64,000 nucleotides of DNA from an uncultured Chloroflexia bacterium (lineage in GTDB: Bacteria; Chloroflexota; Limnocylindria; Limnocylindrales; CSP1-4), in assembly GCA_963736545.1 (NCBI GenBank), contig CAVTPA010000001.1, positions 3,038,940 to 3,102,939 of the forward strand. Direction: 5' to 3'. Shown piece after piece: positions 31,860-47,690 of the stretch. Position 1 is the stretch's first letter, and each line of letters begins with the position of its first letter. A model generated the notes under the pieces. That model was not told where the DNA came from. It worked only from the letters and a program-made list of their open reading frames with translations, and ran no database searches. A program made the position numbers and the translations under genes.

Positions 31860-32566
31860 CCGAGGCCGTACTGCGTCTCGATGAAGCGCCGCCCGGGGGC
31901 CGCGACGGCGAGCCGGGCCCGGACGTTGCGGATCGTCTCGCGCAGCAGGTGATGGTCGCCGGTGTACGCGGGGCCCCAGACCGTCGCCAGGAGCTCGCCG
32001 TGCTCGACGAGGACGCCCGGTTGCTCGGCCAGGTGGCGCAGCAGGCGGTACTCCGTCGGCGTGAGGTGCACCTCCCGGCCATCGATCTCGACGCGGTGGC
32101 GGGTGTCGTCGATCCGAAGGCCGGCCAGCTCGACGACCGGCTCGGCGGGCGCCGACGGCGCCGGCGGACGGGCCCGGCGGAGCGCCGCCGCGACCCGCGC
32201 CACCAGCTCGGGAAAGCTGAGGGGCTTCGTCACGTAGTCGTCCGCGCCGCTGGCGAGCCCCCGCACCTTGTCGGCCTCCGCCCCGAAGGCCGTGACGATG
32301 ATGATCGGCACGCTGCTCGACTCCCGGATCCGGCGAATGACGTGCCAGCCGTCCACCCGCGGGAGCCCGAGGTCGAGGACGATGAGGTCGGGGGGCTCGG
32401 CGTCGAAGGCGCGGATCGCGTGGGCCCCGTCGGGAGAGATCGACGGCTGCCAGCCGTGCCGTTCGAGCCAGAGCGCGATGAGCTCGGCGAACGCCGGCTC
32501 GTCCTCGACGACGAGGATCCGCTCGCCGCGGCCGGCGATCGGGCCGGGCGGCCGCGGACCGCTCAC
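31811..32566 (-). CDS. OmpR-family response regulator
   Basis: Receiver domain (ILVVEDEP...DLIVLDLGLP...TAFGAEADKV) and a winged-helix output (LTPTEYRLLRHLA...GLGYRF). Its GTG start overlaps the HK stop as GTGA. The 3' end overlaps convergent mfd by about 49 bp. Confidence 0.85.
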   Translation of the reverse strand: MSGPRPPGPIAGRGERILVVEDEPAFAELIALWLERHGWQPSISPDGAHAIRAFDAEPPDLIVLDLGLPRVDGWHVIRRIRESSSVPIIIVTAFGAEADKVRGLASGADDYVTKPLSFPELVARVAAALRRARPPAPSAPAEPVVELAGLRIDDTRHRVEIDGREVHLTPTEYRLLRHLAEQPGVLVEHGELLATVWGPAYTGDHHLLRETIRNVRARLAVAAPGRRFIETQYGLGYRFAAGGDDGGAEDD

Positions 32567-34338
32567 GGCCGCGCCTCCGAGCCGGTCGGGGTGAGGGCGC
32601 CGGCCGCGACGGGGAGCCCGACCGAGATCGAGGTGCCCCGCGTGGTCGCGTCGAGGCGGATCCAGCCGCCGTGCGCCTCGACGATCCGCCGGCAGAGGTA
32701 GAGGCCGAGGCCGCTGCCCGGCACGCCCGACTCGCGGACGCCGCGCCCCCGGAAGAACCGCTCGAACACGTGGTCGCGGTCCTCGGCCGCGATGCCCCGG
32801 CCGTCGTCGGCGACGGTGAGGACGACGGTCGCCTCGTCGAGGCGGCGTACCCGCATCTCGATCCGGGACGTGCGGCCGGCGTGCTTCTCGGCGTTCTCGA
32901 CGAGGTTCTGCACGACCTGGCGGATGCGTGACCCGTCGACGTCGACGCGGGGCAGCATGCGCGGCAGGTCGAGCGCCACGGGCCGGGCGTCGGGCCGCTC
33001 GGCCCGCTCCGCCAGGTAGGCCCGCAGGACGCCGTCGAGCGCGACCGGCGTCCGGCGGAGGACGAGGGCGTCGCTCTCGAGCTGCCCGACGTCGATGATC
33101 TCGTCGACCAGGCCGGCGAGCCGCCGGGCGGCCGCGGCAATCCGCTCGAGGTGTCGTCGCGCGGTCGTCGGATCGAGGTCGAGCTGGAGCAGGCTCTGGG
33201 TGTAGCCGTCGATGAGCGCGAGCGGCGTCCGCAGCTCGTGCGAGACGGCCGCGACGAAGCTCGCCTTCGCCGCCTCCAGCGATCGGGCGGGGCGCAGGTC
33301 GCGCAGGACGCCGACGGCCCCACCGTCGACGGCCGGCATCCGGGAGAAGCTCGCCGCGACCGGGATCCGGCCGCCGTCCCGATGGCGAACTTCGATCTCC
33401 CGCCCGACGATCGGGAGGCCGGACTCGAGGACCTCGCCGAACGGGCAGGCCTCGCCGCACAGGAGGAGGCCCGGCGCGTCGTCGACGCCGGCGGGAGTCC
33501 GGGCATGGGCCGCGTTTCGCCACGGGGGGCCGACGCCGTCAGGGCTCCCGGGCCCGCCCGGCCCCGGTTGTCCGCGGCCCGTGGCCACGCAGCCGAGGAA
33601 CGCTTCGCAGGGCATGCCGGCGGCCGCCCGCGCCGCGCCCCCGACGAGCGCCTCGGCGGCCGGGTTGAGGCGCACGATGCGGCGGCTCCCGTCCACCGCG
33701 ACGATCGCGTCGGTCGCGCCCTCGAGGATCGCGGCGAGGGTCGCCTGCTCGCGGGCGAGCCAGCCCCGGAGCTGGGCCGCCCGGAGCGTGACGGCGAGCT
33801 CCTGGCGGACGCTGGCGAGATACCGGACGTGGCCGGGGTCGAGCGTCCCCTCCGCCCGCACGGCCAGGAACCCGACGCCGCCGGCCGCGCCGACCGGCGA
33901 GGCCGGCCCGACGGAACGCCCCTCGGGGAGGGCCGTCCCGCTCCACCCGGCGGCCGTGGCCCAGGCCCGCGCGGCCCTGACGTCGACGAACGCCGGCGGA
34001 ACCGCCGGCCCGGGCTGAGGGGTGCTCCCGGCGTCGCCCGGGAACGTCGCCACGAGCTGGACGGTCGCGGCGCCCGGCTGCGCGAGCCAGAGCGCGGCGT
34101 CGACGGCGCCGACGGCCCGGGCGACCTCGGCGATCACGGCGCTCGCGATCTCGGCGACCGTGCCGCCGGCGGCGAGAAGCTGGCTGAGCTGGTACTGGGC
34201 GAAGACCGCGTCGGCCTCGTGCTGGGCGTCGGTGAAGACGCGATGGCGCTCGACCTCGAGCTCGCGGACGCGGGCCGCGAGGGCCGCGACCTGCGCCGCG
34301 AGCGCCTCCGCCCCCGGGTCGGCGGGCGGCGGCGTCAC
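32563..34338 (-). CDS. Cytoplasmic sensor histidine kinase with GAF-like and PAS-like sensory domains
   Basis: About 591 aa from GTG 34338. No TM segment is apparent. A GAF-like region (AEIASAVIAEVARAVGAVDAALWL) and a PAS-like region (LAAILEGATDAIVAVDGSRRIVRLNPAAEALVG) precede HisKA (AAVSHELRTPLALIDGY) and HATPase_c (NLVENAEKHA...DDGRGI...GSGLGL). The rest of ORF 32563..35055 is a spurious extension over the DhaL-like gene. Confidence 0.8.
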   Translation of the reverse strand: MTPPPADPGAEALAAQVAALAARVRELEVERHRVFTDAQHEADAVFAQYQLSQLLAAGGTVAEIASAVIAEVARAVGAVDAALWLAQPGAATVQLVATFPGDAGSTPQPGPAVPPAFVDVRAARAWATAAGWSGTALPEGRSVGPASPVGAAGGVGFLAVRAEGTLDPGHVRYLASVRQELAVTLRAAQLRGWLAREQATLAAILEGATDAIVAVDGSRRIVRLNPAAEALVGGAARAAAGMPCEAFLGCVATGRGQPGPGGPGSPDGVGPPWRNAAHARTPAGVDDAPGLLLCGEACPFGEVLESGLPIVGREIEVRHRDGGRIPVAASFSRMPAVDGGAVGVLRDLRPARSLEAAKASFVAAVSHELRTPLALIDGYTQSLLQLDLDPTTARRHLERIAAAARRLAGLVDEIIDVGQLESDALVLRRTPVALDGVLRAYLAERAERPDARPVALDLPRMLPRVDVDGSRIRQVVQNLVENAEKHAGRTSRIEMRVRRLDEATVVLTVADDGRGIAAEDRDHVFERFFRGRGVRESGVPGSGLGLYLCRRIVEAHGGWIRLDATTRGTSISVGLPVAAGALTPTGSEARP

Positions 34339-35048
34339 GGTCGCGCCTCGCCGTCGACGGCCCGCGCCATCGCCCCGAGCAGGAGGAAGCAGGAGGTTGC
34401 GCCGGGGTCGCGGTGGCCCCTCGAGCGTTCGCCGAGGCGAAGCGCGAGGCCGCGGCGGGCGACGAGCGGGATCGTCGACCGCATCCCGCTCCCGGCGGCG
34501 AGGGTGGCCGCGGCGAGGCAGTCGCCGAGCGGGCGGCCCGCTGCGGCGCCGGCCCGGAGAGCGGCGACGCCGGGAGCCAGGGCGTCGAGGATCGTCTTGT
34601 CGCCGACGGCGCACCGCCCACGGCGCTCCAGCCCTGCCCGGCCGGCCTCGAGCGCGGTCGCGAGGTCGACCGGCGTGGCCGCGTTCCGGCCCGCCAGGAC
34701 GAACCCGGCCTCGATGAACGCGGTCCCGTAGAGCGGGCCGCTTGCGCCGCCGACGCTCGCCACGAGCGAGTGGCCGAGGACCCGCAGCAGCTCTCCGACG
34801 TCCTCCGGGTGCTCGACGAGCCCGGTCCGGGCGGCCTCGGCGGCGGCCCTGAAGCCGATGGCCATGTTGGCCCCGTGGTCGCCGTCGCCGAGCGCCGCGT
34901 CCAGCCGGTCGAGGAGGGCCTCGTGGCGGTCGAGCGCGGCCACGGCGTGCTCGACGAAGCGGACCACGTCGCGGGCAGTGAGCGCGTCGTGGTCGACCGC
35001 GCCGGACGCGGCGCGCGGAGACTTCAGCGGGGGCCCTATCCTCTCCAT
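34335..35048 (-). CDS. DhaL-like (Dak2 domain, ADP-binding) protein translationally coupled to the histidine kinase
   Basis: 237 aa from ATG 35048. DhaL motifs are [32 protein letters not shown] and LGERSRGHRDPGA. Its TGA stop overlaps the HK GTG start as GTGA at 34335..34338. Confidence 0.75.
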   Translation of the reverse strand: MERIGPPLKSPRAASGAVDHDALTARDVVRFVEHAVAALDRHEALLDRLDAALGDGDHGANMAIGFRAAAEAARTGLVEHPEDVGELLRVLGHSLVASVGGASGPLYGTAFIEAGFVLAGRNAATPVDLATALEAGRAGLERRGRCAVGDKTILDALAPGVAALRAGAAAGRPLGDCLAAATLAAGSGMRSTIPLVARRGLALRLGERSRGHRDPGATSCFLLLGAMARAVDGEARP

Positions 35049-35121
35049 CGGCCACCGGAGTCTACGGCGGCCGCTGGGGCGGCGCGAGGTCGGCGCTCCG
35101 CGAGACGGACGGGAGGCGGCG

Positions 35122-35550
35122 ATGATCGCCCTGGCACTGGTGGGCCACAGCCCCGAGCTGTTGCGCGCGCTTCGGGCGATGCTTGCCCAGGCGGCGCCCG
35201 GCGTACCGGTCGCGACGGCCGGCGGATCGGCGGCCGGCTCGCTCGGCACCAGCAGCCCCGTGATCGAGGAGGCGCTCGCGGCCGCCATGGTCGCCAGCGA
35301 CGGCGCGGGCGTCGTCGTCCTGTTCGACCTCGGCAGCGCCGCGATGGCGCTCGAGATGGCGCTCGAGGCCCTGCCGGCGGCGGACCGCGACCGGGTTCGC
35401 GTCAGTCGAGGCCCGCTCGTCGAGGGGGCGGTCGCGGCTGCCGTCGAGGCCGCAGCCGGGGCGCCGCTCGACCGCGTGCTGGCGATCGCGGACGCGGAAC
35501 GGCTCACGGAGAAGCTGCCGGCCGACTGGCTCGCCGGGGCGAGCCGGTGA
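35122..35550 (+). CDS. DhaM-like phosphotransfer protein (PTS EIIA-mannose fold), paralog 2
   Basis: ATG 35122 with GGGAGG upstream. MIALALVGHSPELLRALRAMLAQAA with the conserved His of the EIIA-Man fold. About 40% identical to the second DhaM at 43452. The stop overlaps the downstream DhaL start as GTGA. Confidence 0.7.
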   Translation: MIALALVGHSPELLRALRAMLAQAAPGVPVATAGGSAAGSLGTSSPVIEEALAAAMVASDGAGVVVLFDLGSAAMALEMALEALPAADRDRVRVSRGPLVEGAVAAAVEAAAGAPLDRVLAIADAERLTEKLPADWLAGASR

Positions 35551-36191
35551 CGGAGGCGCTCCTCGTCCGCTGGCTGCGCACCGCGGCCGAGCGCGTCGCG
35601 GGAGCCCGCCTGCTCCTGACGGAGCTCGATGCGGCCATCGGGGACGGCGACCACGGGATCAACCTCGACCGCGGCTTTGCCGAGCTCGTGCGACGGCTCG
35701 ATGTCGGTGAGGTGCCTGACGCGCCGCCGGCGGCGACCCTGGAGGCGGCCGGCAGGACGATCATGGCCACCGTCGGCGGGGCCAGCGGCGCGCTGTACGG
35801 CCGGGCGCTCCAGCGTGCAGGGGCCGCCCTGATCGCTCCCGTCGCGACCGGGCCGGCGGCGCGCGAGGAGATTGCGGCAACGGCTCTCGCCGCGGCCGTC
35901 GCGGCGATCTCGGCGCTCGGCCGGGCGACGATCGGCGAGAAGACGATGCTTGACGCGCTCGTCCCGGCGCGGGACGCGTTCCAGGCTGCGGTGGCCTCCG
36001 GAGCGGACCTCGCCGCGGCCGCCGCGGCCGCCGCGGCGGCCGCCGACGCCGGCGCGGCGGGGACGGTCCCGCTCCTGGCCACGAAGGGCCGGGCGAGCTA
36101 CCTCGGCGAGCGCTCGATCGGGCACGTCGACCCGGGCGCCGTGTCGAGCGCCATCCTCCTCCGCGCGCTGGCCGACGTCGCCGCCGGCTGA
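35547..36191 (+). CDS. DhaL paralog 2 (Dak2 domain)
   Basis: GTG 35547. Motifs LDAAIGDGDHGINL, GGASGALYG, GEKTMLDAL and [19 protein letters not shown]. Confidence 0.8.
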   Translation: MTEALLVRWLRTAAERVAGARLLLTELDAAIGDGDHGINLDRGFAELVRRLDVGEVPDAPPAATLEAAGRTIMATVGGASGALYGRALQRAGAALIAPVATGPAAREEIAATALAAAVAAISALGRATIGEKTMLDALVPARDAFQAAVASGADLAAAAAAAAAAADAGAAGTVPLLATKGRASYLGERSIGHVDPGAVSSAILLRALADVAAG

Positions 36192-36505
36192 CTCCTCCCC
36201 GGCGCGCCACTCGAGCGGCCCGTCCTCACGAATCTGACAATGTCCTGACGATTCCCGGACGTGCCCGGTCGTAACCTTTCCGCAACGGTGCCGGCGGGCA
36301 CCGTGCGCCGACCGCGCCCAGACGGTCGCGCGGCCCGGGGCCGTGGCCGCGACATGACGGGAGGGACGCAACCCGAGCAGATCGTGCTGTGCCCTACCCG
36401 GCGAGCCCGAACCGGGTGCTCGCTCGCCGGATCTCGGTTCGATCGGCGACGCGGCGTCGCCCTCCGCGCGATTGGCGCGTTTCCTTCATCCCAGAGGGAG
36501 AGAGC

Positions 36506-37270
36506 ATGGAACTCAACATCTTCATGTCCGAGGTCTTCGGCACAATGCTGCTGATCCTCCTCGGCGATGGCGTGGTCGCGGGCGTCCTGCTCGCGAAGTC
36601 GAAGGCCAACGCCTCCGGCTGGATCGTCATCACGATGGCATGGGCCTTCGCGGTGTTCACCGGCGTCGTGGTCGCCGGCGGCGTCGGCGGCGACCTGGTG
36701 TACGGCAACGCGCACCTGAACCCGGCCGTCACGCTCGGCATCTTCGTGAACGCGGCCGTCAGCGGCGGCACCGTCGACGTGGTTGCGATGTTCATCTACA
36801 TCGCCGGCCAGTTCGTCGGCGCGTTCATCGGCGCGACCCTCGTGTTCCTCCACTACTACCCGCACTGGGCGGAGACCGAGGATCCCGGGCTCAAGCTGGC
36901 CGTCTTCTCGACCGCTCCGGCGATTCGCAACGTGACCTGGAACTTCGTCTCCGAGGTCATCGGCACCTTCGTCCTCGTCTTCGTGGTTCTCGCGTTCGGC
37001 AACAACGCGGGCCTCTCCGGCCTCGGCCCCCTGTCGGTCGCCCTGCTGGTCCTCGTGATCGGCCTCGCCCTCGGCGGCACGACCGGGTACGCGATCAACC
37101 CCGCCCGCGACCTCGGGCCGCGGATCATCCACGCGATCATGCCGATCCCGGGCAAGGGAGGCTCCGACTGGGAGTACTCCTGGATCCCGGTTGTCGGCCC
37201 GCTCACCGGCGGCGTCGTCGCTGCCCTCGTGTACCAGTTCATCTTCGTGACGACGGTCGTCCCGGCCTGA
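36506..37270 (+). CDS. glpF: Glycerol uptake facilitator (aquaglyceroporin)
   Basis: Six TM segments and two NPA boxes (HLNPAVT, INPARD). SD GGGAGAG upstream. Confidence 0.9.
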   Translation: MELNIFMSEVFGTMLLILLGDGVVAGVLLAKSKANASGWIVITMAWAFAVFTGVVVAGGVGGDLVYGNAHLNPAVTLGIFVNAAVSGGTVDVVAMFIYIAGQFVGAFIGATLVFLHYYPHWAETEDPGLKLAVFSTAPAIRNVTWNFVSEVIGTFVLVFVVLAFGNNAGLSGLGPLSVALLVLVIGLALGGTTGYAINPARDLGPRIIHAIMPIPGKGGSDWEYSWIPVVGPLTGGVVAALVYQFIFVTTVVPA

Positions 37271-37387
37271 TCGCGCGAACCTAGCCCGCAGCTACCGCGC
37301 GCCGGCGGCCAACGGCCTCGCCGCCGGCGCGCCCACCGTCCAGCAACGTTCCCGAGCACCCGGCGTCATCGCATCCTGGAGGAACGG

Positions 37388-38386
37388 ATGAAGAAGCTCA
37401 TCAACGCTCCCGACGCGGTCGTCGACGACTCGCTCGCCGGCGTCGTCGCGGCCCACGGTGACCTGGTCAAGGTCATCGAGCCGAACGTCGTCGTGCGCGT
37501 CGACGCCCCGAAGTCGGGCAAGGTCGGCGTGATCTCCGGCGGCGGCAGCGGCCACGAGCCGATGCACGGCGGATTCGTCGGGATGGGCATGCTCGACGCT
37601 GCCTGCCCCGGCGCGGTCTTCACCTCGCCGGTGCCGGACCAGATGCTCGCCGCGACCAAGGCGGTCGACGGCGGCGCCGGCGTCCTGCACATCGTCAAGA
37701 ACTACACCGGCGACATCATGAACTTCGAGCTCGCGGCCGAGATGGCCCGGGCGGAGGGGATCGAGGTCACCAGCGTCGTCATCGCCGACGACGTCGCGGT
37801 CAAGGACTCGCTCTACACCGCGGGCCGCCGCGGCGTCGGCGGGACCGTCCTCGCCGAGAAGATCGTCGGCGCCGCCGCCGAGGCGGGGGCCGACCTCGCC
37901 ACGGTCACGGCGCTCTGCCAGAAGGTCCAGGACAACGTCCGCTCGATGGGCATGGCGCTCACGAGCTGCACGGTCCCGGCCGCCGGCAAGCCGACCTTCG
38001 ACATCGGCGACGACGAGATGGAGATCGGCGTCGGCATCCACGGGGAGCCGGGCCGCACGCGGATGAAGGTCGCCACGGCGGCCGAGGTCACCGCGATGCT
38101 CGCCACGCCGATCCTCGACGACCTGCCGTTCCAGGCCGGGGACAAGGTCCTCGCCTTCGTGAACGGGATGGGCGGGACGCCGCTCATCGAGCTTTACGTG
38201 ATCTTCAACGAGCTCAAGAAGATCCTCGACGCTCGCGGGATCACGATCGCCCGCAACCTCGTCGGCAGCTACATCACCTCGCTCGAGATGGCGGGCTGCT
38301 CGATCACCCTCCTGCGCCTCGACGACGAGCTGACGAAGTACTGGGATGCCCCGGTGCTGACGCCCGGCCTTCGCTGGGGCCTGTGA
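37388..38386 (+). CDS. dhaK: Dihydroxyacetone kinase, DHA-binding subunit
   Basis: [26 protein letters not shown]...[15 protein letters not shown], with the DHA-binding His in GHEP. Confidence 0.9.
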
Positions 38387-38441
38387 GCGCGACGTCCATC
38401 ACGTCACCTTCCACGCCCGCAGCGCGGGACTGGAGCCGCGG

Positions 38442-39074
38442 ATGATCTCGCACGACGATGTCATTGCCTGGGTTCGCCGGTTCGCCGCCGTGGTGGCGGA
38501 GAACAAGACGTACCTCACGGAGCTCGATTCCGCGATCGGCGACGCCGACCACGGGATCAACATGGACCGCGGCTTCACCGCCGTGGCCGGCAAGCTCGAC
38601 GGTCTCGTCGGCCCTGACATCGGGGCGACGCTGAAGACGGTCGGCACGACGCTCGTCTCGACGGTCGGCGGCGCCAGCGGGCCGCTCTACGGGATGTTCT
38701 TCATGCAGATGGGAGGGGCCGCGGCCGGCAAGGAGTCCCTCGACGCGCAGGAGTTCGCCACGGCCTTCGAGGCCGGTGTCGGCGGGGTCCTCCGCATCGG
38801 GAAGGCCGAGCTCGGCGACAAGACGATGGTCGATGCCCTCCTGCCCGCGCGCGATGCGCTGCAGGCCGCGATCGCCGACGGGGCTTCCGCCGGGGACGCG
38901 GTCCAGCGGATGGCGAACGCGGCGGAGGAGGGCATGCTCGCCACGGTGCCGCTCGTCGCCCGCAAGGGCCGGGCGAGCTACCTCGGCGAGCGGTCGGCCG
39001 GGCACCAGGACCCGGGCGCGACGTCCACCCATCTGCTGCTGCGGTCCGCCGCAGAGGCATTCGCCGGGCGCTAG
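38442..39074 (+). CDS. dhaL: Dihydroxyacetone kinase, ADP-binding subunit
   Basis: [51 protein letters not shown]. Confidence 0.9.
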
Positions 39075-39112
39075 CCCGGCATGTTCGGTCAAGCCAGTAT
39101 CGGGAGACGCAC

Positions 39113-40609
39113 ATGACGAAGTACGTGGGGGCCCTCGACCAGGGGACCACGAGCACCCGCTTCATGATCTTCGACCACGCCGGCCTGCCGGTGGCGATCG
39201 ACCAGATGGAGCACGAGCAGATCTTCCCGAAGCCGGGTTGGGTCGAGCACGACCCGATGGAGATCTGGGCCCGCAGCCAGGACGTCATCAAGGGCGCCCT
39301 CGCCAAGGCCGGCCTCACCGCCGCGGACCTCGCCGCGGTCGGCGTCACCAACCAGCGCGAGACGACGGTCGTCTGGGACAAGCGCACCGGCAAGCCGGTC
39401 TACAACGCCATCGTCTGGCAGGACACCCGGACCAAGGACATCTGCGACGAGCTCGAGAAGGACGGCGGCCCGGATCGTCTCCGCCCGAAGACCGGCCTGC
39501 CGCTGGCGACCTACTTCTCCGGCCCGAAGGCCAAGTGGGTCCTCGACAACGTCGCCGGCGCGCGCGCCGACGCCGAGGCGGGGCACCTCCTGTTCGGCAA
39601 CATCGACACCTGGTGCATCTGGAACCTGACCGGCGGCGTCAACGGCGGCGTCCACGTCACCGACGTGTCCAATGCCAGCCGCACGCTCATGTTCAACTAC
39701 ACGACGCTCGCGTGGGATCCCGAGATCACAGCGCTTCTCGGCGTCCCGGCGTCGATGCTGCCGGCCGTCAAGGCCTCGTCCGCGGTCTACGGCACGTGCG
39801 TCGGCGACCTCGCCGGCGTCCCGGTCGCGGGCGACCTGGGCGACCAGCAGGCCGCCCTCTTCGGCCAGACCTGCTTCTCGCCCGGCGAGGCGAAGAACAC
39901 GTACGGCACGGGCTGCTTCATGCTCCTCAACACGGGCACGAAGGCAGTCCCGAGCAAGAGCGGCCTCCTGACGACGTTGGCGTACAAGATCGGCGACCAG
40001 CCGGCCGTGTACGCGCTCGAGGGCTCGATCGCCATCACGGGCGCCCTCGTGCAGTGGGTCCGCGACAACCTCCAGATGATCGAGAAGTCGCCCGACATCG
40101 AGGCCCTCGCGGCCTCCGTCGAGGACAACGGCGGCGTCTACTTCGTCCCGGCGTTCTCCGGCCTCTTCGCGCCGTACTGGAAGAACGACGCTCGCGGCGT
40201 GATCGCGGGCCTCACCCGGTACGTCACCAAGGCCCACATCGCACGGGCCGTCCTCGAGGCCACCGCCTGGCAGACCCGCGAGGTCCTGGACGCGATGAAC
40301 GCCGACTCCGGCGTTCCGCTGACGGCCCTCAAGGTCGACGGTGGCATGGTCTTCAACAACCTCCTCATGCAGTTCCAGTCCGACGTCCTGAAGGTTCCGG
40401 TCATCCGGCCGAAGGTCGCCGAGACGACGGCCCTCGGGGCGGCCTACGCGGCCGGCCTGGCGGTCGGGTACTGGGGCGAGGTCGAGGACCTGCGCGCGAA
40501 CTGGGCGAAGGACCACGAGTGGCATCCGACGATGGATCCCGCGAAGGTCGACGCCGAGTACGCGCAGTGGAAGAAGGCCGTCACCCGCACGTTCGGCTGG
40601 GTCGACTGA
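39113..40609 (+). CDS. glpK: Glycerol kinase
   Basis: 498 aa with the FGGY kinase signature ([16 protein letters not shown]...[11 protein letters not shown]...[18 protein letters not shown]). Confidence 0.95.
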
Positions 40610-40679
40610 CGACCCTCCCGGTGTCCGGGCCCCGCGTCGCGGGGCCCGGACACCACCATCCCGGGCGCGGAGCGCAGAC

Positions 40680-41867
40680 ATGACCATCCCCCGACTTCCC
40701 CGGCAGCCCTTCCACGTCGTCATCGTCGGCGGTGGCGGGACCGGCGGCGCCCTCGCCCATGACCTGATCCTCCGAGGGTTCCGCGTGACCCTCGTCGAGC
40801 GCGGCGAGCTCACCTCCGGGACCACCGGCCGCCACCACGGCCTCCTCCACTCGGGCGCCCGCTACGCCGTCAAGGACCAGGAGTCGGCCGTCGAGTGCAT
40901 CGAGGAGCGCCGGATCCTCGGGAAGGTCTGCCCCGGCTCGTTCGAGGAGAACGACGGCCTGTTCGTCGCGATCACCGACGAGGACGTCGCCTACGAGCCG
41001 ATGTTCTACGAGGCCTGCCTGGCCAGCGGGATCCCGGCTCGCCGGGTGACCCGCGAGGAGGCGCTCCGCCTGGAGCCGCACCTCAACCCCGACCTCAAGA
41101 TGGCGGTCCAGATCCCCGATGCGACGATGGACGCCATGCGGATGCCCCTCCGCTTCTTCGCGACCGCGAAGGCCGGAGGCGCGGTCATCCGTCCCTGGAC
41201 CCTCGTCACCGAGCTGCTGGTCGCCGACCGCCTCGTGACCGGGATCCGCGTCCGCGATCTCACGAACGGCGTCGAGGAGGAGATCCACGGCGATCTCGTC
41301 GTCAACGCGACGGGACCCTGGGCCGAGCAGATCGCCGTCATGGCCGGCTGCGACGTCCCGATCCGCCCCTCGCCGGGCGTGATCCTCGCCGTCCGCGGCC
41401 GCTGGTGCAACATGGTCATCAACCACCTCCACGCGTCCGGCGACGGCGACATCATCGTTCCCCAGCGCGGCCTCTCGGTCGTCGGCACGAGCTCCTGGGT
41501 CGTGGAGGATCCCGACGACCTCGGGGTCCCCGAGGACCACGTCGAGCGGATGTACGTCGAGGGCTCGAAGATGATCCCCGCGATCCGGACCGCGGAGCGT
41601 CGAGCAGCCTGGTCGGCGGCCCGCCCGCTGATCGGCTCGCGCGACGCGGACTCCGGGCGCGAGCTGAGCCGGACGTTCAAGTGCTTCGACCATCGCGAGA
41701 CGGACGGCGTCGAGGGGTTCGTCACGATCTCCGGCGGCAAGGGCACGACGCTCCGGGCGATGGCCGAGACGACCGCCGACGTCATCTGCCGGAAGGTTGG
41801 CGTCGAGGCGCCCTGCCAGACCCGGGAGGTCGTGACCCTTCCGCACGGCGCCTACTACGCGGCGTAG
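40680..41867 (+). CDS. glpA: FAD-dependent glycerol-3-phosphate dehydrogenase flavoprotein (GlpA-like, short form)
   Basis: FAD fold VVIVGGGGTGGALAHDL and the GlpA/GlpD signature SGTTGRHHGLLHSGARYAVKDQESAVECIEE. Confidence 0.8.
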   Translation: MTIPRLPRQPFHVVIVGGGGTGGALAHDLILRGFRVTLVERGELTSGTTGRHHGLLHSGARYAVKDQESAVECIEERRILGKVCPGSFEENDGLFVAITDEDVAYEPMFYEACLASGIPARRVTREEALRLEPHLNPDLKMAVQIPDATMDAMRMPLRFFATAKAGGAVIRPWTLVTELLVADRLVTGIRVRDLTNGVEEEIHGDLVVNATGPWAEQIAVMAGCDVPIRPSPGVILAVRGRWCNMVINHLHASGDGDIIVPQRGLSVVGTSSWVVEDPDDLGVPEDHVERMYVEGSKMIPAIRTAERRAAWSAARPLIGSRDADSGRELSRTFKCFDHRETDGVEGFVTISGGKGTTLRAMAETTADVICRKVGVEAPCQTREVVTLPHGAYYAA

Positions 41868-41877
41868 GAGCAGAGCC

Positions 41878-42624
41878 ATGACAGCACCTGCCGCCGAGCA
41901 GCGCACCGTCCGGGTCAGCGTCTCCCGCCGCAAGGAGGGCGACGACCCGGCGGAGCAGCGCTACGACACCTTCGACGTCGCCGTCGGCCCGAGCGCGATG
42001 ATCCTCGACGCGCTCGTCGCCATTCGTCGCCAGCAGGACGCCACGCTCGCGTTCCGCCACTCCTGCTTCCACGCCTCCTGCGGGACCTGCGGGATGCGGG
42101 TCAACGGCCGCGAGGGCCTCGCCTGCGTGACGCCCGTCCCCGCCGGCGACGAGGTGGTCGTCGAGCCGCTCGCCAACATCCCGGTGGTCTCGGACCTCGT
42201 CGTCGACATGAACGTCTTCTACGACGAGTTCGACGAGGCCGGACGCCCGCTCGTCCGTGCCGACGACCTCATCCCCGAGTGCGAGCCGGCCGAGGGGATC
42301 GACCAGCTCGAGCGGTACGAGGACTGCATCGAGTGCGGGATCTGCGTGTCCGCCTGCCCGGTGGCCGGCAGCGACCCGCGCTACGTCGGGCCGGCCGCCC
42401 TCGCGGCAGCCTCGCGTCTCCTCGACGAGCCGCGCGGGCGCGATCCCGGCCCGGTCCTGCGGCTGATGGACAGCGAGCAGGCCGCGTGGCGCTGCCACCT
42501 GGCGTGGGAATGCTCCGAGGCGTGCCCGTCGGGCGTGGACCCGGCCGGCGCGATCATGCGGCTCCGGCGAGCGGCTGTCGCGGCGCGCGCTCGTCGCCTC
42601 TTCTCGTTCGGAGGATCCCGCTGA
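41878..42624 (+). CDS. Succinate-dehydrogenase/fumarate-reductase-type iron-sulfur subunit (SdhB-like)
   Basis: A 2Fe-2S ferredoxin-like N-domain (CFHASCGTCGMRVNG...ACV) and two 4Fe-4S dicluster motifs (CIECGICVSACP; CHLAWECSEACP). The stop overlaps the next start as TGATG. Confidence 0.8.
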   Translation: MTAPAAEQRTVRVSVSRRKEGDDPAEQRYDTFDVAVGPSAMILDALVAIRRQQDATLAFRHSCFHASCGTCGMRVNGREGLACVTPVPAGDEVVVEPLANIPVVSDLVVDMNVFYDEFDEAGRPLVRADDLIPECEPAEGIDQLERYEDCIECGICVSACPVAGSDPRYVGPAALAAASRLLDEPRGRDPGPVLRLMDSEQAAWRCHLAWECSEACPSGVDPAGAIMRLRRAAVAARARRLFSFGGSR

Positions 42625-43046
42625 TGGCCACCACGACCGTCCAGCCCCCGCGGCCGGAGACCGGGCCGGCCCAGCGCCGGGGGATCATCGGCTGGTTCGA
42701 CCCGCGCGGCCGGCGCCTCGGGGGCCTTGCCTTCATCCTCAACCGGCTGAGCGGGATCGGCCTCGCCGTCTACCTGTACCTGCACCTCGGCATCCTGTCG
42801 CTCCTGGCCACGGGACCCGATGCCTGGGACACGTTCGTCGACATCGCCCTGAGCCCCCCGGTCCTCGTGCTGGACGTGGTCCTCCTGGCCGGCATGCTGT
42901 TCCACGGGCTGAACGGGATCCGCGTCGGCCTGGTCGGGATGGGCCTGGTGGTGAGCCGCCAGCGCGCGCTCGTCATCGCCGCGGTCGTCATCGCCGGCTT
43001 CGTCACCTTCGTCGGCGCGCTCCGCATCTTCGGCGGGGAGGGGTAG
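42624..43046 (+). CDS. Membrane anchor cytochrome b subunit (SdhC-like)
   Basis: 140 aa with three TM helices and conserved His residues (HLGILSLL, FHGLNG). Confidence 0.7.
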   Translation: MATTTVQPPRPETGPAQRRGIIGWFDPRGRRLGGLAFILNRLSGIGLAVYLYLHLGILSLLATGPDAWDTFVDIALSPPVLVLDVVLLAGMLFHGLNGIRVGLVGMGLVVSRQRALVIAAVVIAGFVTFVGALRIFGGEG

Positions 43047-43054
43047 GAGAAGCC

Positions 43055-43441
43055 ATGACCACCGAACAGCGGGCGCTCGAGCGCCCGGCCGCGGGCTCGC
43101 GCGGCATCCCTGCCTTCGTCGGCCAGGTCCTGAGCGGCGTGGTGCTGCTGGTGCTCCTCACGCTGCACATGGTCGCCCAGCACTTCGTGGTGCCGACCGG
43201 GCTGCGCTATTACGAGGACGTCATCGACTGGCTGAGCAACCCGGTCGTGGTCGCGGTCGAGGTCCTCTTCCTGACGTTCGTCACGTACCACGCCCTGCTG
43301 GGCATGCGGGCGATCCTCTTCGACTTCGGCTTCTCGGAGAGGACCGAGCGCCGCCTGACCGCCATCTTCGTCGTCGTCGGGATCGCCACCGTGGTGTACG
43401 GCGTGGCGCTCCTCGCGGCGATCATCAACAACGCGCAGTAG
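43055..43441 (+). CDS. Membrane anchor subunit (SdhD-like)
   Basis: 128 aa with three TM helices and a His in the first TM (LTLHMVAQHF). Confidence 0.65.
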   Translation: MTTEQRALERPAAGSRGIPAFVGQVLSGVVLLVLLTLHMVAQHFVVPTGLRYYEDVIDWLSNPVVVAVEVLFLTFVTYHALLGMRAILFDFGFSERTERRLTAIFVVVGIATVVYGVALLAAIINNAQ

Positions 43442-43451
43442 GATCCTGGCC

Positions 43452-43859
43452 ATGGAGCCGCTCGTCGGGATCGTCGTCGTCAGCCACTCCGCCCAGATCG
43501 CCGCCGGGACGGTCGAGCTCGCCCGCCAGATGGCGGGTCCAGACCTGCGGATCGAGGGCGCCGGCGGCATCGCGGACGGCTCGCTCGGCACGGATGCGGC
43601 CGCGATCATGACCGCCATCGAGACGGCCGACACGGGCGCCGGGGTCCTCGTCCTCGTCGACCTTGGCAGCGCCGTGCTCGCAACGCAGACGGCCCTCGAG
43701 CTCCTCGGCGAGGACGTGGCCGCTCACGTCCGGCTGTCCGGCGGGCCGCTCGTCGAGGGCGCGGTCGTCGCGGCCCTGCAGGCGAGCATCGGGGATGCGC
43801 TCGACGCCGTCCATGCGGCGGCGGAGGGCGCGGCGAGCCTGCCGAAGCTTCCGGAGTGA
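43452..43859 (+). CDS. dhaM: Dihydroxyacetone kinase phosphotransfer subunit (EIIA-Man fold only)
   Basis: MEPLVGIVVVSHSAQIAAGTVELARQMAG, with the phosphorylatable His in VSHS. The stop overlaps the next start as GTGA. Confidence 0.8.
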   Translation: MEPLVGIVVVSHSAQIAAGTVELARQMAGPDLRIEGAGGIADGSLGTDAAAIMTAIETADTGAGVLVLVDLGSAVLATQTALELLGEDVAAHVRLSGGPLVEGAVVAALQASIGDALDAVHAAAEGAASLPKLPE

Positions 43860-44953
43860 GCGCAGTCGCGGACGCCGCCGCGGACGTCGCGACGGCCCCG
43901 CGGCGCGTCGCCGTCGTCGGTGCGGGGGCCGTCGGCACGCTGCTCGGCGGGCTCCTCGCGGCGGCCGGCGCCGATGTCACGCTCGTCGATGCCCGCGTCT
44001 CGGCGGACGCCTCCGCCGACGTGTCCATCCACGAACCGGGAGGCCGCGAGGTGGTTGCCCGGGTCCGCCGCGCCACGCACCTCGCCGACGTCGCCGGCGA
44101 CCCCGACCTCGTGGTCCTCGCCGTCAAGATGTTCGACCTGGCGGGGGCTCTCGACGACCTCGTCGCCTGGCCGAACGCAACCCTCCTCACGATCCAGAAC
44201 GGGATCGGCGCGGAGGAGCTCGTGGCCTCGGCACGGCCCGGGGCGGGCCTCGTCGCCGGGTCGCTGACCTCGCCCGTGGAGCGGCCCGGCCCCGCCGAGG
44301 TCCGCTGGCGCGGCCGCGGCGGCATCGCCCTCGCGGTTGCCGCCGGGGACGCCGCCGCCGACGCCGACTGGCTGGCAGCCGCGTTCGCGACGGCCGGCCT
44401 GCCCTCGCGGCGCCTCGACGACCCGCGGGCGATGAAGTGGTCGAAGCTCGTCGGCAACCTCGTCGGCAACGCGCTGAGCGCGCTGGCGGACCGTGAGCCG
44501 GCGGCCGTCTACGCCGACCCCGTCCTCTTCGACCTCGAGCGTCGGCAGCTCGCGGAGACCCTGGCCGTCATGCGGGCCGCCCGGATCCCGGTGGTCGCCC
44601 TCCCGGGCGCCGACGTGCGCCTCCTCGCCCTCGCGATCCGGCTGCCGGCTCCGCTGTCGCGGGCCGTGCTCCGGCGAGTCGTCGGCGGCGCGCGCGGCGG
44701 CAAGTCGCCGTCCCTGCGGCTGCATCTCCAATCGGCGGAGGGCCCGACCGAGGCCGCCTGGCTGAACGGCGCGGTGGCCCGCGCCGGTGCCGTGGCCGGC
44801 GTGCCGACGCCCGTGAACGCCGCCCTTGCCCGTCTGCTCGACGCGGTCGTCGGCGATCCCGAGCTGCGCGACGAGCTCGCGGCGCGGCCCCACCGGATCG
44901 CCGAGATCGTCGCCGCCGAACCGCCAACCCACGTCCCGAGCCGCGGCCCCTAA
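43856..44953 (+). CDS. Ketopantoate-reductase (ApbA/PanE) family NAD(P)-dependent oxidoreductase
   Basis: Rossmann motif VAVVGAGAVGTLLGGLLAAAG, then LAVKMFDL and a KPR C-terminal domain. Embedded between dhaM and ptsH. Confidence 0.75.
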   Translation: MSAVADAAADVATAPRRVAVVGAGAVGTLLGGLLAAAGADVTLVDARVSADASADVSIHEPGGREVVARVRRATHLADVAGDPDLVVLAVKMFDLAGALDDLVAWPNATLLTIQNGIGAEELVASARPGAGLVAGSLTSPVERPGPAEVRWRGRGGIALAVAAGDAAADADWLAAAFATAGLPSRRLDDPRAMKWSKLVGNLVGNALSALADREPAAVYADPVLFDLERRQLAETLAVMRAARIPVVALPGADVRLLALAIRLPAPLSRAVLRRVVGGARGGKSPSLRLHLQSAEGPTEAAWLNGAVARAGAVAGVPTPVNAALARLLDAVVGDPELRDELAARPHRIAEIVAAEPPTHVPSRGP

Positions 44954-44967
44954 CGGAGGACCTCCAG

Positions 44968-45252
44968 ATGCGCACCCTCGAGATCGAGATCCGCAACCCG
45001 TCCGGCATCCACCTCCGTCCCGCAGGGACCTTCGTGAAGGGGGCCGCCGCCTACCGCTCCGCGATCACCCTCGAGAACGTGACTCGCGGCGGCAAGGCGG
45101 TCAACGCGAAGGACGCCCTGGCGGTCCTCTCGTACGGCAAGGCGGCTCGCGGCGACACGGTCCGGATCGTCGCCGACGGGGAGGACGAGGACGTCGCGAT
45201 CGATGGGCTCCGGGAGCTCATCGAGAGCGGGCTCGGGGAGTCGCTGGAGTGA
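44968..45252 (+). CDS. ptsH: Phosphocarrier protein HPr
   Basis: 94 aa (EIRNPSGIHLRPAGTFV; His15 region). The stop overlaps the ptsI start as GTGA. Confidence 0.85.
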   Translation: MRTLEIEIRNPSGIHLRPAGTFVKGAAAYRSAITLENVTRGGKAVNAKDALAVLSYGKAARGDTVRIVADGEDEDVAIDGLRELIESGLGESLE

Positions 45253-47051
45253 CCGGGCCGCGCCTCGCCGGCGTGGGAGCAGCACCGGGGATCGCGATCG
45301 CGCCGGCCTGGCGCTACGTGGAGGGCGCGGCCGCGGCCGCCGGAGCCCCGGTCCACGCGGATCCCGCCGCGGCCGTTCGCGCCGCGGCGGACACGGCGGC
45401 GACCGAGCTCGAGGCCCTCGCGGCGCGCGTGCGCGAGACGGGACGCGAGGAGGAGGCAGGGATCTTCGAGGGCCAGGCGCTCCTCGCCACGAGCCCGAGC
45501 CTCATCGACGACGCGGTCGAGCGGACGGAGGGCGGCATGCCCCCTGCCGAGGCCGTCACGGCCGCCGCCGACGCTGCGGCCGAGGTGCTCGCCGCGCTCG
45601 ACGACGAGCTCCTCGCGGCACGGGCCGCCGACGTCCGCGACGTCGGGGCACGGATCGCCCGGATCCTCCGCGGTGAGCGCCTCTCCCTCCCGGGCACGCC
45701 CTCGATCGCCGTCGCCGACGACCTTCCGCCGTCGGTGACCGCGGAGATCCCGGCCGGGCTCCTGCTCGGCATCGTCCTCGAGGGCGGGTCGCGAACGGCC
45801 CATGCCTGCATCCTCGCCCGCAGCCTCGGCATCCCGGCCGTGGTCGGAGCCTCGGGGGTCCTCGCGGCGCTCGACGCGGCGACCGTGGTCCCTGCGGCGA
45901 CCGTGGTCCCTGCGGCGACCGTGGTCCCTGCGGCGACCGTGCTGGCCGTCGACGGGGAGTCCGGGGAGGTCGTCGTCGACCCGGACGCGGCGACCCGCGA
46001 GGCGTTCGGCGCACGCGCCGCCGCGCTCGAGGCCCGCCGAGCCCGAGCGGCGGCCGTCCGGGGACGTCCCGGGGCGACCGCGGACGGCAGGCGCGTCCTC
46101 CTCGTCGCGAACATCGGGACGCCCGACGATGCGCCGCGCGCCCTCGACGCCGGCGCCGAGGGCGTCGGCCTGTTCCGGACCGAGTTCCTGTTCATGCAGC
46201 GCCAGGTCCCGCCGACCGAGGACGAGCAGGTCGCCGCCTATCGCCGCGCCTTCGACGCGTTCGGCCCCGCACGCCCCGTGGTCGTGCGCCTGGCCGACAT
46301 CGGTGGCGACAAGGGGATCCCGTACCTCGGCCTGCCCGCCGAGGCCAACCCGTTCCTCGGCGTGCGCGCGATCCGGCTCGCCTACGGCGATCCCGAGCTG
46401 CTGCGCACCCAGCTGCGGGCGATCTGGCGGGCCGGCGGCCTCGCCGGCGTCGAGCCGCACGTCATGGCCCCGATGGTCGCCACGCTCGAGGACGTCGACC
46501 TTCTCGAGACGCTGCGCGACGAGGCGCGGGCCGCGGTCCTGGCCGCCGGGCAGCCGTGCGCCGCGCGCATGGTGACCGGGATCATGGTCGAGGTGCCGGC
46601 CGCGGCGTTCCTGGCCCCCGAGCTCGCCCGGCGCGTCGCGTTCTTCAGCATCGGCACGAACGACCTCACCCAGTACGTCATGGCCGCCGACCGGGGCAAC
46701 GCGGCGCTCGGGCGGCTGCAGGACGCGCTCCATCCGGCCGTGCTGCGTGCCGTGGCCGGCGTCGTGGCCGGGGCGGATGCGGGCGGGATCCCCGTCGCCG
46801 TCTGCGGCGAGCTGGCAGGCGACCCGGCCGGGGCGCTCGTGCTCGTCGGCCTGGGCGTGGACGAGCTCTCCGCCGACGCGGGCTCGCTCGACGAGGTGCG
46901 GGCGGCCCTCGCCGCGTGCACGGCGGCGGAGCTGGAGGCGCTGGCGACCGCCGCCCTCGCAGCGCCCGACGCACGTGCCGTCCGGGCGGCGGCAGCGCCG
47001 CTCCTCGCCCGGGCCGCCGGGACGGCTTGGGAGCCTGCCCCGGCGGACTGA
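45249..47051 (+). CDS. ptsI: Phosphoenolpyruvate-protein phosphotransferase (PTS Enzyme I)
   Basis: 600 aa with a phospho-His domain (GGSRTAHACILARSLGIP) and a PEP-utilising C-terminal barrel (GLFRTEFLFM, SIGTNDLTQY, CGELAGDP). Confidence 0.9.
   Translation: MTGPRLAGVGAAPGIAIAPAWRYVEGAAAAAGAPVHADPAAAVRAAADTAATELEALAARVRETGREEEAGIFEGQALLATSPSLIDDAVERTEGGMPPAEAVTAAADAAAEVLAALDDELLAARAADVRDVGARIARILRGERLSLPGTPSIAVADDLPPSVTAEIPAGLLLGIVLEGGSRTAHACILARSLGIPAVVGASGVLAALDAATVVPAATVVPAATVVPAATVLAVDGESGEVVVDPDAATREAFGARAAALEARRARAAAVRGRPGATADGRRVLLVANIGTPDDAPRALDAGAEGVGLFRTEFLFMQRQVPPTEDEQVAAYRRAFDAFGPARPVVVRLADIGGDKGIPYLGLPAEANPFLGVRAIRLAYGDPELLRTQLRAIWRAGGLAGVEPHVMAPMVATLEDVDLLETLRDEARAAVLAAGQPCAARMVTGIMVEVPAAAFLAPELARRVAFFSIGTNDLTQYVMAADRGNAALGRLQDALHPAVLRAVAGVVAGADAGGIPVAVCGELAGDPAGALVLVGLGVDELSADAGSLDEVRAALAACTAAELEALATAALAAPDARAVRAAAAPLLARAAGTAWEPAPAD
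45878..45950 (+). repeat. In-frame 18-bp tandem repeat (about 3.5 copies) inside ptsI
   Basis: gcgaccgtggtccctgcg repeated, encoding ATVVPA ATVVPA ATVVPA ATV. It lies in the linker between the His domain and the PEP-binding domain. Confidence 0.7.
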
Positions 47052-47072
47052 CGCCGCCTATACTCCCGGCCC

Positions 47073-47690
47073 ATGGAGCCGCTCGAACTCGCCCGCGCCG
47101 CCGCGCTCGTCGTCGCCGGCTACCTCATCGGCGGGATCCCGTGGGGCGTGATCGTGGCTCGCCTGTCCGGCGGCCCGGATCCCCGCACGGTCGGCAGCGG
47201 CCGGACCGGCGGGGCGAACGTGGCCCGCGCCCTCGGGCCGCGGCTGGCCCTCGTTTCAGGCCTCCTCGACATGCTCAAGGGCACCGCCGCGGTCCTCCTC
47301 GCCCGCGCCCTGGGGGCCGGCGTCGAGGTCGAGGTGCTGGCCGGGCTGGCGGCCATCGTCGGCCACAGCCGCTCGCCGTTCCTCGGCTTTTCGGGCGGCC
47401 GGGGCGTCGCGCCGGGCTTCGGGGCCGGGCTCGCCTTCTCCCCGCTCGCGGCCGTGATCACCCTCGCGGTGTTCGTCGCCGTCCTGGCGATCTGGCGCTA
47501 CACGTCGCTCGCCTCGCTCGTCGGCTCCGCCGCCGGCGGCATCGCCTTCGCCGCCCAGATCCTGGCGACGGGGCTTCCGCCCGCTCTGCTCGGCTTCGCC
47601 ATCGGCGCGCCCGTCCTCGTCTGGCTCTTCCACCTCGACAACATCGGGCGCCTGATGCGGGGCGAGGAGCGCAAGTTCGGCGCCAAGTGA
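47073..47690 (+). CDS. plsY: Glycerol-3-phosphate acyltransferase PlsY
   Basis: 205 aa membrane protein with GSGRTGGANVARALG (G-S-G-x-x-G-A-N motif) and HSRSPFLGFSGGRGVA. Confidence 0.85.
   Translation: MEPLELARAAALVVAGYLIGGIPWGVIVARLSGGPDPRTVGSGRTGGANVARALGPRLALVSGLLDMLKGTAAVLLARALGAGVEVEVLAGLAAIVGHSRSPFLGFSGGRGVAPGFGAGLAFSPLAAVITLAVFVAVLAIWRYTSLASLVGSAAGGIAFAAQILATGLPPALLGFAIGAPVLVWLFHLDNIGRLMRGEERKFGAK

Follow-up and report, generated by a model that had tools for sequence, protein, structure and literature searches.

A short GlpA flavoprotein encoded with succinate dehydrogenase-like iron-sulfur and anchor subunits in a soil Chloroflexota glycerol operon: a probable glycerol-3-phosphate:menaquinone oxidoreductase

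The 64,000-nucleotide stretch of DNA analyzed here (the window), from an uncultured Chloroflexia bacterium, carries an operon for glycerol and dihydroxyacetone (DHA) in which four consecutive genes, at 40680 to 43441 on the plus strand, encode a short GlpA-type flavoprotein, an SdhB-type iron-sulfur (Fe-S) protein, and two small membrane proteins resembling SdhC and SdhD. Our reading, to which we assign a probability of roughly 70%, is that these genes encode one membrane-bound glycerol-3-phosphate (G3P):menaquinone oxidoreductase. The window has a G+C content of 71 to 79% and lies on contig_7589 (439 kb) of ERZ25039513, a soil-type metagenome assembly in ENA. Independent gene calling on that contig gave the same operon genes.

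The operon begins with glpF, for a MIP-family glycerol facilitator (36506..37270; 163 bits with TIGR00861, just under the cutoff of 171, and PF00230 on the source contig). It is followed by dhaK, for the DHA-binding subunit of phosphoenolpyruvate (PEP)-dependent DHA kinase (37388..38386; TIGR02363, 490 bits against a cutoff of 406), dhaL, for its ADP-binding subunit (38442..39074; TIGR02365, 239 against 138), and glpK, for glycerol kinase (39113..40609; TIGR01311, 731 against 590). The four-gene module comes next: short glpA (40680..41867), the SdhB-type gene (41878..42624), and the SdhC-like (42624..43046) and SdhD-like (43055..43441) genes. Behind it lie dhaM, for the EIIA-Man-type phosphoryl donor of DHA kinase (43452..43859; TIGR02364, 125 against 98), a gene for an NAD(P) oxidoreductase of the ketopantoate reductase (KPR) family (43856..44953; TIGR00745, 152 against 141), ptsH, for HPr (44968..45252; TIGR01003, 62 against 48), ptsI, for Enzyme I (EI) (45249..47051; TIGR01417, 434 against 342), and plsY, for acyl-phosphate:G3P acyltransferase (47073..47690; TIGR00023, 150 against 137). 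A preliminary description of the window had placed these 13 genes at the same coordinates, all on the plus strand; each matches its own family in the profile search, mostly above the curated cutoff. The overlapping junctions that it pointed out are there as well, TGATG at 42622 to 42626 and GTGA at 43856 and at 45249. From glpA to plsY, all intergenic gaps are at most 21 nucleotides (nt). A GGAG-type motif precedes each operon gene, and G+C at third codon positions is 0.93 to 0.98 across all of them. The order glpF-dhaK-dhaL-glpK-glpA-sdhB-sdhC-sdhD-dhaM is repeated in dozens of genomes whose proteins are just 50 to 70% identical, and this recurrence puts the operon order far above chance.

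Judged by its sequence, the flavoprotein of 395 amino acids (aa) is the catalytic core of GlpA without the C-terminal [2Fe-2S] domain. The GlpA equivalog model, TIGR03377, matches it with 419 bits, continuously over model positions 1 to 374 of 530; the score is below the cutoff of 553 because the C-terminal third is missing. Models for GlpD and GlpO give at most 85 bits (NF008899, 85 against a cutoff of 360; NF009906, 68 against 352), and the protein stops where the C-terminal cap domain of GlpD would begin. The SdhA/FrdA combination of FAD_binding_2 and Succ_DH_flav_C is not present either: the flavoprotein beside the SdhB-type gene is of the DAO type, and FAD_binding_2 gives just 33 bits, in the Rossmann part only. 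We modeled the protein with AlphaFold2 from a deep alignment (predicted local distance difference test [pLDDT], 95.7; predicted template modeling score, 0.93); a model from a shallow alignment of 47 sequences, 72 to 92% identical, was discarded (pLDDT, 59.6). The top fold matches among solved structures are GlpD and GlpO, with template modeling scores of 0.74 to 0.82 at 20 to 23% identity, and no GlpA structure is known to have been solved. The protein is thus GlpA-type, as the preliminary description had it, and does not group with oxidases of substrates other than G3P. Short and canonical GlpAs alike have the conserved motifs TGRHHGLLHSGARY and GRHHGLLHSGARY, RPL (R315), and GGK (K354), of which RPL and GGK are also common to GlpD and GlpO. 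We take the Arg of RPL and the Lys of GGK to be the phosphate-binding residues of the GlpD structures.

The flavoprotein has no C-terminal BFD-type [2Fe-2S] domain and no Cys-rich tail. Its homologs from related loci (n = 82) are at most 413 aa long, with a median of 394 aa. We compared the tails of GlpA forms found in a search among 1.8 billion cluster representatives. Almost all forms of 370 to 445 aa have at most two Cys past residue 385, and mostly none, the exception being one 442-aa form with four; forms of about 480 to 590 aa mostly have at least four. In a rough neighbor-joining tree, about 16 short GlpA clusters, this flavoprotein included, are separate from the canonical long GlpAs. 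The short form ends in a conserved tail, LPHxAYYAA, which reads LPHGAYYAA here. Two short GlpAs, P0250 and P0258, have no aromatic C-terminal tail and no SdhB behind them where visible, which makes the tail a candidate SdhB-docking element; the number of cases is very small, and LPHGAYYAA may play this part here. Loci of the tail-less clade are L087 (730-1950), L088 (17-1237), and L091 (451-1674). A conserved protein of 406 to 407 aa without a Pfam match precedes the tail-less P0250 and P0258 and is possibly yet another type of GlpA partner.

The second gene of the module encodes a 248-aa protein that scores 185 bits against a cutoff of 88 with TIGR00384 and has E. coli SdhB (1nek_B, 2e-37) and mitochondrial SDHB as its closest solved relatives. 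Its ligand motifs are complete: C63-x4-C68-x2-C71-x11-C83, C150-x2-C153-x2-C156-x3-C160-P, and C206-x5-C212-x3-C216-P. We assign C63, C68, C71, and C83 to the [2Fe-2S] cluster, C150, C153, C156, and C216 to the [4Fe-4S] cluster, and C160, C206, and C212 to the [3Fe-4S] cluster. These 11 Cys are invariant in nine diverse homologs and at least 95% conserved in 78, and the claim of a three-cluster SdhB-like subunit is borne out. Compared against both families, the products of 41878..43441 match SdhB and Sdh_cyt models above their cutoffs; the GlpC model gives the SdhB-type protein only 38 bits against a cutoff of 278, through a common ferredoxin motif. The [2Fe-2S] region carries a subfamily signature, HSCxHASCGTC, versus RRSCREGVCGS in E. 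coli SdhB, and the signature is still present in relatives at just 36 to 41% identity. In the E. coli SQR structures, His207 of SdhB is a quinone-site residue. All 88 anchor-bearing loci have His at the equivalent position, and three of the four scorable anchor-less loci have Asp or Glu (L069 keeps His). The pattern is consistent with an interface to the quinone or the anchors at the [3Fe-4S] end of the anchored form.

The SdhC-like and SdhD-like proteins each have three hydrophobic segments by hydropathy, taken as three transmembrane helices, and match PF01127 (49 and 53 bits, respectively, against a cutoff of 25.8); both additionally match the Fumarate_red_C profile. The closest solved relative of both is SdhC of Mycobacterium smegmatis Sdh2 (6LUM), at 6.5e-12 for the SdhC-like protein, whose alignment with 6lum_C covers the full length, and at 2e-7 for the SdhD-like protein. 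In Sdh2, a diheme succinate:menaquinone reductase of type A, heme bP is held by His D107 and His C87 and heme bD by His D65 and His C47 (PMC7447783). In the alignment, His54 of the SdhC-like protein falls on the bD ligand His C47, and its His94 falls on the bP ligand His C87. His38 and His79 of the SdhD-like protein stand at the paralogous positions, 41 residues apart; the spacing is 40 in both the SdhC-like protein and M. smegmatis SdhC. Each of the four is at least 95% conserved among 75 to 78 nonidentical homologs; His54 and His94 reach at least 98% (n = 78), and H43 of the SdhD-like protein is at least 95% conserved as well. A four-way alignment shows all four retained in the module of L089, whose subunits are just 38 to 45% identical. 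Because these conserved His sit at the bP/bD ligand positions and are kept even at that distance, we predict that the pair is most likely a type-A-like anchor that binds two bis-His hemes b. The preliminary description had proposed a heme b anchor; the ligand His are kept in both anchors, and the prediction is refined from one heme to two.

The glpA-sdhBCD-like layout recurs in relatives. A scan with clade-specific peptide patterns, in which each of 185,579 species was represented by one genome, yielded at least 478 loci that encode a relative, and we read the best 80. In 79 of these species-level genomes, from Chloroflexota and Actinomycetota, an SdhB-type gene lies directly behind short glpA; in the lone exception, the contig ends 523 nt before sdhB. 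sdhA is never beside the SdhB-type gene in these best 80 loci, and both anchors lie downstream in every one with enough sequence except L069. All four sampled metagenome homologs of the SdhB-type protein (55 to 67% identity) are likewise directly behind a short glpA. Among species-level genomes, the closest are Microflora-Danica metagenome-assembled genomes (MAGs) labeled "uncultured Chloroflexia bacterium," and more distant ones belong to Candidatus Limnocylindrales, Anaerolineae, Ardenticatenaceae, Promineifilaceae, and Actinomycetota. The glpA-sdhB gap has a median of about 10 nt, and about half of the loci have sdhB and sdhC overlapping by 1 or 4 nt. In most of them, glpF and glpK are immediately upstream. 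The module also occurs without any dha genes (L074, Actinophytocola-like; L083, Streptosporangiaceae), and a 43%-identical four-gene version stands behind an operon of glpK, a GntR regulator, and an ABC transporter (L089 and L090).

Several observations on single loci belong here. In L074 (2500-5660), the module has no glpK or dha genes nearby and lies behind a beta-lactamase-fold protein and two alpha/beta hydrolases, a neighborhood that may reflect a connection with the breakdown of lipids or esters. In L075, an Ardenticatenaceae MAG, a second GlpA-like gene (38% identical) directly follows sdhD from about 8670 onwards. Two apparent fusions were rejected: the GlpA-SdhB protein P0016 (586 aa) is a frameshifted read-through into a garbled SdhB, and the SdhB-SdhC protein P0153 (388 aa) is a read-through at the TGATG junction. 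Both are most likely frameshift or assembly errors at overlapping junctions.

A variant of the module has no anchors. The profile search reached short GlpAs of the cultured spirochetes Alkalispirochaeta sphaeroplastigenens, A. americana, and Sediminispirochaeta bajacaliforniensis. Spirochete-like metagenome loci, L092 to L096, 65 to 85% identical to the Alkalispirochaeta protein, carry glpA and an SdhB-type gene with the same signature. No anchor genes were found in them, and the next gene is on the opposite strand; Asp or Glu replaces the His adjoining the first [3Fe-4S] Cys. In the Chloroflexota, L069 (5300-9700) likewise has short glpA and the SdhB-type gene with no anchors. Along with the pattern at the His207 equivalent, this variant points to the flavoprotein and its Fe-S partner as the evolutionary core of the system.

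Taken together, the protein families, the cofactor-ligand motifs and their conservation, the tight translational coupling, and the linkage across two phyla argue for a single enzyme. As the preliminary description had proposed, a GlpA-type flavoprotein stands in the SdhA position of a B/C/D scaffold of the succinate:quinone oxidoreductase (SQR) type, on the evidence of profiles, fold, Fe-S motifs, anchor His, and the linkage in 79 of 80 genomes. We infer that GlpA assembles on the SdhB-type subunit. Glycerol would enter via GlpF and be phosphorylated by GlpK, and the FAD of the short GlpA would oxidize sn-glycerol-3-phosphate to DHA phosphate (DHAP). Since GlpA has lost its BFD-type [2Fe-2S] domain, the electrons would next be taken up by the [2Fe-2S] cluster of the SdhB-type subunit, as a functional replacement for the lost one, and travel through [4Fe-4S] and [3Fe-4S] to the six-helix, two-subunit anchor with its predicted pair of hemes and on to menaquinone. 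We assume this acceptor because it is the quinone of Chloroflexota and Actinomycetota. PlsY would draw on the G3P pool for lipid synthesis.

Several points weigh against this picture. The DAO fold of GlpA is unrelated to that of SdhA, the usual docking partner of SdhB. Trp164, which belongs to the proximal quinone site of E. coli SdhB (CPSFWWNP), has no counterpart here (CPVAGSDP), whereas the His207 equivalent is conserved, so the placement of the quinone site is uncertain. Energetics raise a further difficulty. The potential of DHAP/G3P is about -190 mV and that of menaquinone about -74 mV, and a diheme anchor with a distal quinone site normally drives the uphill reaction from succinate to menaquinone by using the membrane potential. 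Because electron transfer from G3P to menaquinone is downhill, a diheme wire to a distal site would waste energy or dissipate membrane potential. Finally, the anchor-less pairs in L069 and the spirochete-like loci show that the anchors are not obligatory for the flavoprotein and its Fe-S partner.

That last observation, together with the anchors' match to Fumarate_red_C, lends some weight to a version in which GlpA and the SdhB-type protein are the functional pair and the small membrane proteins are a heme-free dock, like E. coli FrdCD, with a proximal quinone site and no electron transfer across the membrane. The His207 equivalent tracks the presence of the anchors and so points to a proximal site, and downhill oxidation of G3P needs no diheme wire. 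We nevertheless consider a heme-free dock improbable, given four His at the bP/bD positions of a solved diheme enzyme, at least 95% conserved in 75 to 78 homologs and kept at 38 to 45% identity. To our knowledge, heme-free anchors do not have these ligand His. A much smaller chance attaches to the idea that in vivo the reaction goes the other way, with the enzyme acting as a menaquinol:DHAP reductase and supplying G3P to PlsY. Members of the complex II family are reversible, and plsY and the KPR-family reductase lie within the operon. By the potentials given above, however, this direction is uphill; glpF and glpK directly upstream favor catabolism, and the module has no plsY in most lineages. 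We regard a reversed enzyme as scarcely probable.

The remaining doubts concern which partners and substrate the subunits have. If the SdhB/C/D-like proteins were ordinary succinate dehydrogenase (SDH) subunits pairing with an SdhA from elsewhere, their position behind glpA would be incidental. They do reach the SdhB and Sdh_cyt family models, and no sdhA was seen in the 64-kb window by Pfam scans and annotation, in which several open reading frames (ORFs) have no Pfam match, so any sdhA would be encoded elsewhere. An incidental position is nonetheless hard to square with the linkage to short glpA in 79 of 80 genomes, the recurrence of the module in a different operon at 43% identity and of the pair in the spirochete-like loci, and sdhA never being adjacent. 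The genes are, besides, translationally coupled to glpA, and the HSCxHASCGTC signature is unlike the E. coli SdhB sequence. The solved SQR of Chloroflexus, a member of the Chloroflexota (9lay), has a single b558-type anchor, and its SdhB is a weak match, at 46 bits versus 132 for E. coli SdhB. Because of the fixed glpA linkage and the diverged signature, the Fe-S and anchor set appears to be dedicated to GlpA, and we give ordinary SDH subunits only a remote chance. The flavoprotein, for its part, could have drifted to another substrate, such as another 2-hydroxy or an amino compound, and keep no more than a resemblance to GlpA. Its 419 bits lie under the equivalog cutoff, and the module in L074 has alpha/beta hydrolases, but no glpK, as neighbors. 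The missing C-terminal third accounts for the low score, however, and the core is matched continuously over positions 1 to 374. The presumed phosphate binders, the Arg of RPL and the Lys of GGK, are invariant or nearly so in short and canonical GlpAs, and glpK is adjacent here and in most loci. A change of substrate therefore seems very unlikely to us.

A G3P:menaquinone oxidoreductase built from all four proteins remains our preferred reading, and it can be extended into a fuller account. Soil Chloroflexota and Actinomycetota would respire G3P by a third class of G3P dehydrogenase, in which a DAO-fold flavoprotein has replaced SdhA on a diheme complex II scaffold, docks through its aromatic tail, and feeds a two-heme transfer that is sensitive or coupled to the membrane potential. 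We put this account forward tentatively and find it rather doubtful that every part of it holds.

The rest of the operon supplies DHAP by a second path. DhaK, DhaL, and DhaM are equivalog-level matches that together make up a DhaKLM kinase, and the phospho-His residues read from the sequence are present in HPr (His15, in GIH15LRP) and DhaM (His of VSHS). DhaK and DhaL would phosphorylate free DHA to DHAP, with phosphate relayed from PEP through EI and HPr to DhaM. Many relatives encode DhaM-HPr-EI as single polypeptides of 833 to 870 aa behind sdhD, at the same operon position. Such natural fusions are Rosetta-stone evidence that EI and HPr serve DhaM, and they support the dedication that the preliminary description had argued from the absence of a sugar-specific phosphotransferase system permease; none was seen in the window, where several ORFs have no Pfam match. 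Its two routes to DHAP stand as far as the genes go, since glycerol kinase with G3P dehydrogenase and the PEP-dependent DHA kinase are both encoded. The second is refined: the cluster encodes no glycerol dehydrogenase, and the kinase would therefore depend on free DHA that is supplied from elsewhere.

The KPR-family gene is confined to Limnocylindria-like loci, where it always accompanies plsY (43856-44953 and 47073-47690 in the window; L086, 1-76). We considered whether its product could be a disguised GpsA; it matches a GpsA model with only 26 bits, and its relatives in the PDB are all 2-dehydropantoate (ketopantoate) reductases. It could be involved in producing or consuming some triose or glycerol derivative, with reduction of DHA or DHAP as a candidate role. 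In one sister contig, DhaM and the KPR-family protein are called as a single 500-aa protein.

The cluster extends farther upstream than had been described. On the plus strand, a pair of genes at 35122-36191 encodes a second EIIA-Man/DhaM-like protein of 142 aa (35122..35550; EIIA-man, 56 bits), 42% identical to DhaM and with the His of a VGHS motif kept, and a second DhaL paralog of 214 aa (35547..36191; Dak2, 163 bits; TIGR02365, 195 bits). A divergent DhaL-histidine kinase-response regulator operon occupies 31811-35048 on the minus strand. It comprises a third DhaL paralog of 237 aa (34335..35048; Dak2 domain, 153 bits; GDGDHG motif kept), translationally coupled to a PAS-HisKA-HATPase sensor histidine kinase identified by Pfam (32563..34338), and, as its last gene, an OmpR-type response regulator with Response_reg and Trans_reg_C domains (31811..32566), also called on the source contig. 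The arrangement is shared with relatives L002 and L003. These upstream genes are conserved in Chloroflexota, and the minus-strand dhaL is also found in many Actinomycetota loci. The DhaL paralogs keep the GDxDHG motif, and DhaM2 keeps its phospho-His. Overall, 31811-36191 resembles a two-component version of E. coli DhaR, which is controlled by DhaL/DhaK, with the third DhaL as a candidate sensor of DHA-kinase status. Upstream of glpF, the 314-nt intergenic stretch 36192-36505 has no Rfam match and contains the region's sole terminator-like hairpin, at 36465-36479 with TTTCCTTCAT behind it; this stretch is a possible boundary between the dhaM2-dhaL2 transcript and the main operon. Scans of 31-49 kb for promoters, terminators, and Rfam families were uninformative at 75% G+C. 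Elsewhere in the window lie chromosomal housekeeping genes: dnaK, dnaJ, an ABC exporter, a MiaB-like radical-SAM enzyme, HIT, YqeY, a 7TM-HD protein, YbeY, Mfd, apt, mtnA, ahcY, metK, ManC, and PGM.

If the four proteins do assemble, complex II would be a modular platform whose Fe-S wire and heme anchor accept a flavoprotein of unrelated fold. This would be a natural case of a dehydrogenase-head swap and would add a class of respiratory G3P dehydrogenase beside GlpD and GlpABC. Its genes are common in Actinomycetota and in Chloroflexota of soil that are abundant though uncultured (Limnocylindria-like, Anaerolineae, Ardenticatenaceae, and Promineifilaceae). Public sources label the GlpA-linked Fe-S and anchor genes "succinate dehydrogenase/fumarate reductase," and because of such names metabolic reconstructions could wrongly credit genomes with SDH subunits. 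The cultured Alkalispirochaeta and Sediminispirochaeta would offer an experimental entry point if their genomes carry the pair of glpA and the SdhB-type gene. The appeal of the system lies in respiratory-chain enzymology and in the correction of annotation; it is not unexpected after the 2025 study of archaeal enzymes discussed below, and it is not the key to a long-standing question.

Among known systems, GlpABC of E. coli and haloarchaea shares the GlpA-family catalytic core and the reaction, whereas the protein here has no BFD-type [2Fe-2S] domain, and neither GlpB nor GlpC, the CCG-domain Fe-S protein, is encoded at the locus. GlpD and GlpO have the same fold and reaction chemistry. The flavoprotein here differs in its length, 395 aa against about 500, and in having no C-terminal cap domain, and GlpD works without Fe-S or heme partners. 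The M. smegmatis Sdh2 type and the module described here both occur in menaquinone-using phyla. The two have in common a three-cluster SdhB, two three-helix anchors, and four His at the bP/bD positions; they differ in that the flavoprotein here is a DAO-fold GlpA, no SdhF is evident, and the substrate couple is much more reducing.

The closest precedent comes from archaea, where Schmerling et al. (Commun Biol 2025; PMC11962113) described GlpA-type enzymes with diverse partners. GlpA-CoxG of Sulfolobus acidocaldarius is, like the protein here, a truncated GlpA that needs a separately encoded partner for membrane association; its partner is a small CoxG-like protein without redox cofactors, and it has been shown biochemically, unlike the SdhBCD type (PMC11962113). 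The idea of a GlpA-SdhBCD complex is already published: one was proposed for Thermofilum pendens and its relatives by synteny alone (PMC11962113, Fig. 9b), with a truncated GlpA followed by homologs of succinate dehydrogenase b, c, and d, read as serving electron transfer and membrane anchoring. G3P:quinone oxidoreductase activity of the assembled complex is shown for no member (PMC11962113). The locus here has the same synteny, a GlpA-clade flavoprotein without the C-terminal domain followed by sdhB, sdhC, and sdhD homologs. We found no report of this layout in bacteria in the literature searched, which excludes most subscription papers, and as far as that literature shows, the bacterial occurrence, the abundance, the diheme prediction, and the anchor-less variant are new. 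The statement that bacterial glpA consistently co-occurs with glpB and glpC (PMC11962113) is contradicted, because this locus and hundreds like it carry glpA with SdhB-type genes. Compared with Thermofilum as published, the module here has a dhaKLM/phosphotransferase operon setting and a predicted two-heme anchor. The archaeal type is known from a few archaea by synteny, whereas the bacterial one occurs in Chloroflexota, Actinomycetota, and at least one further lineage and is very common in soil metagenomes.

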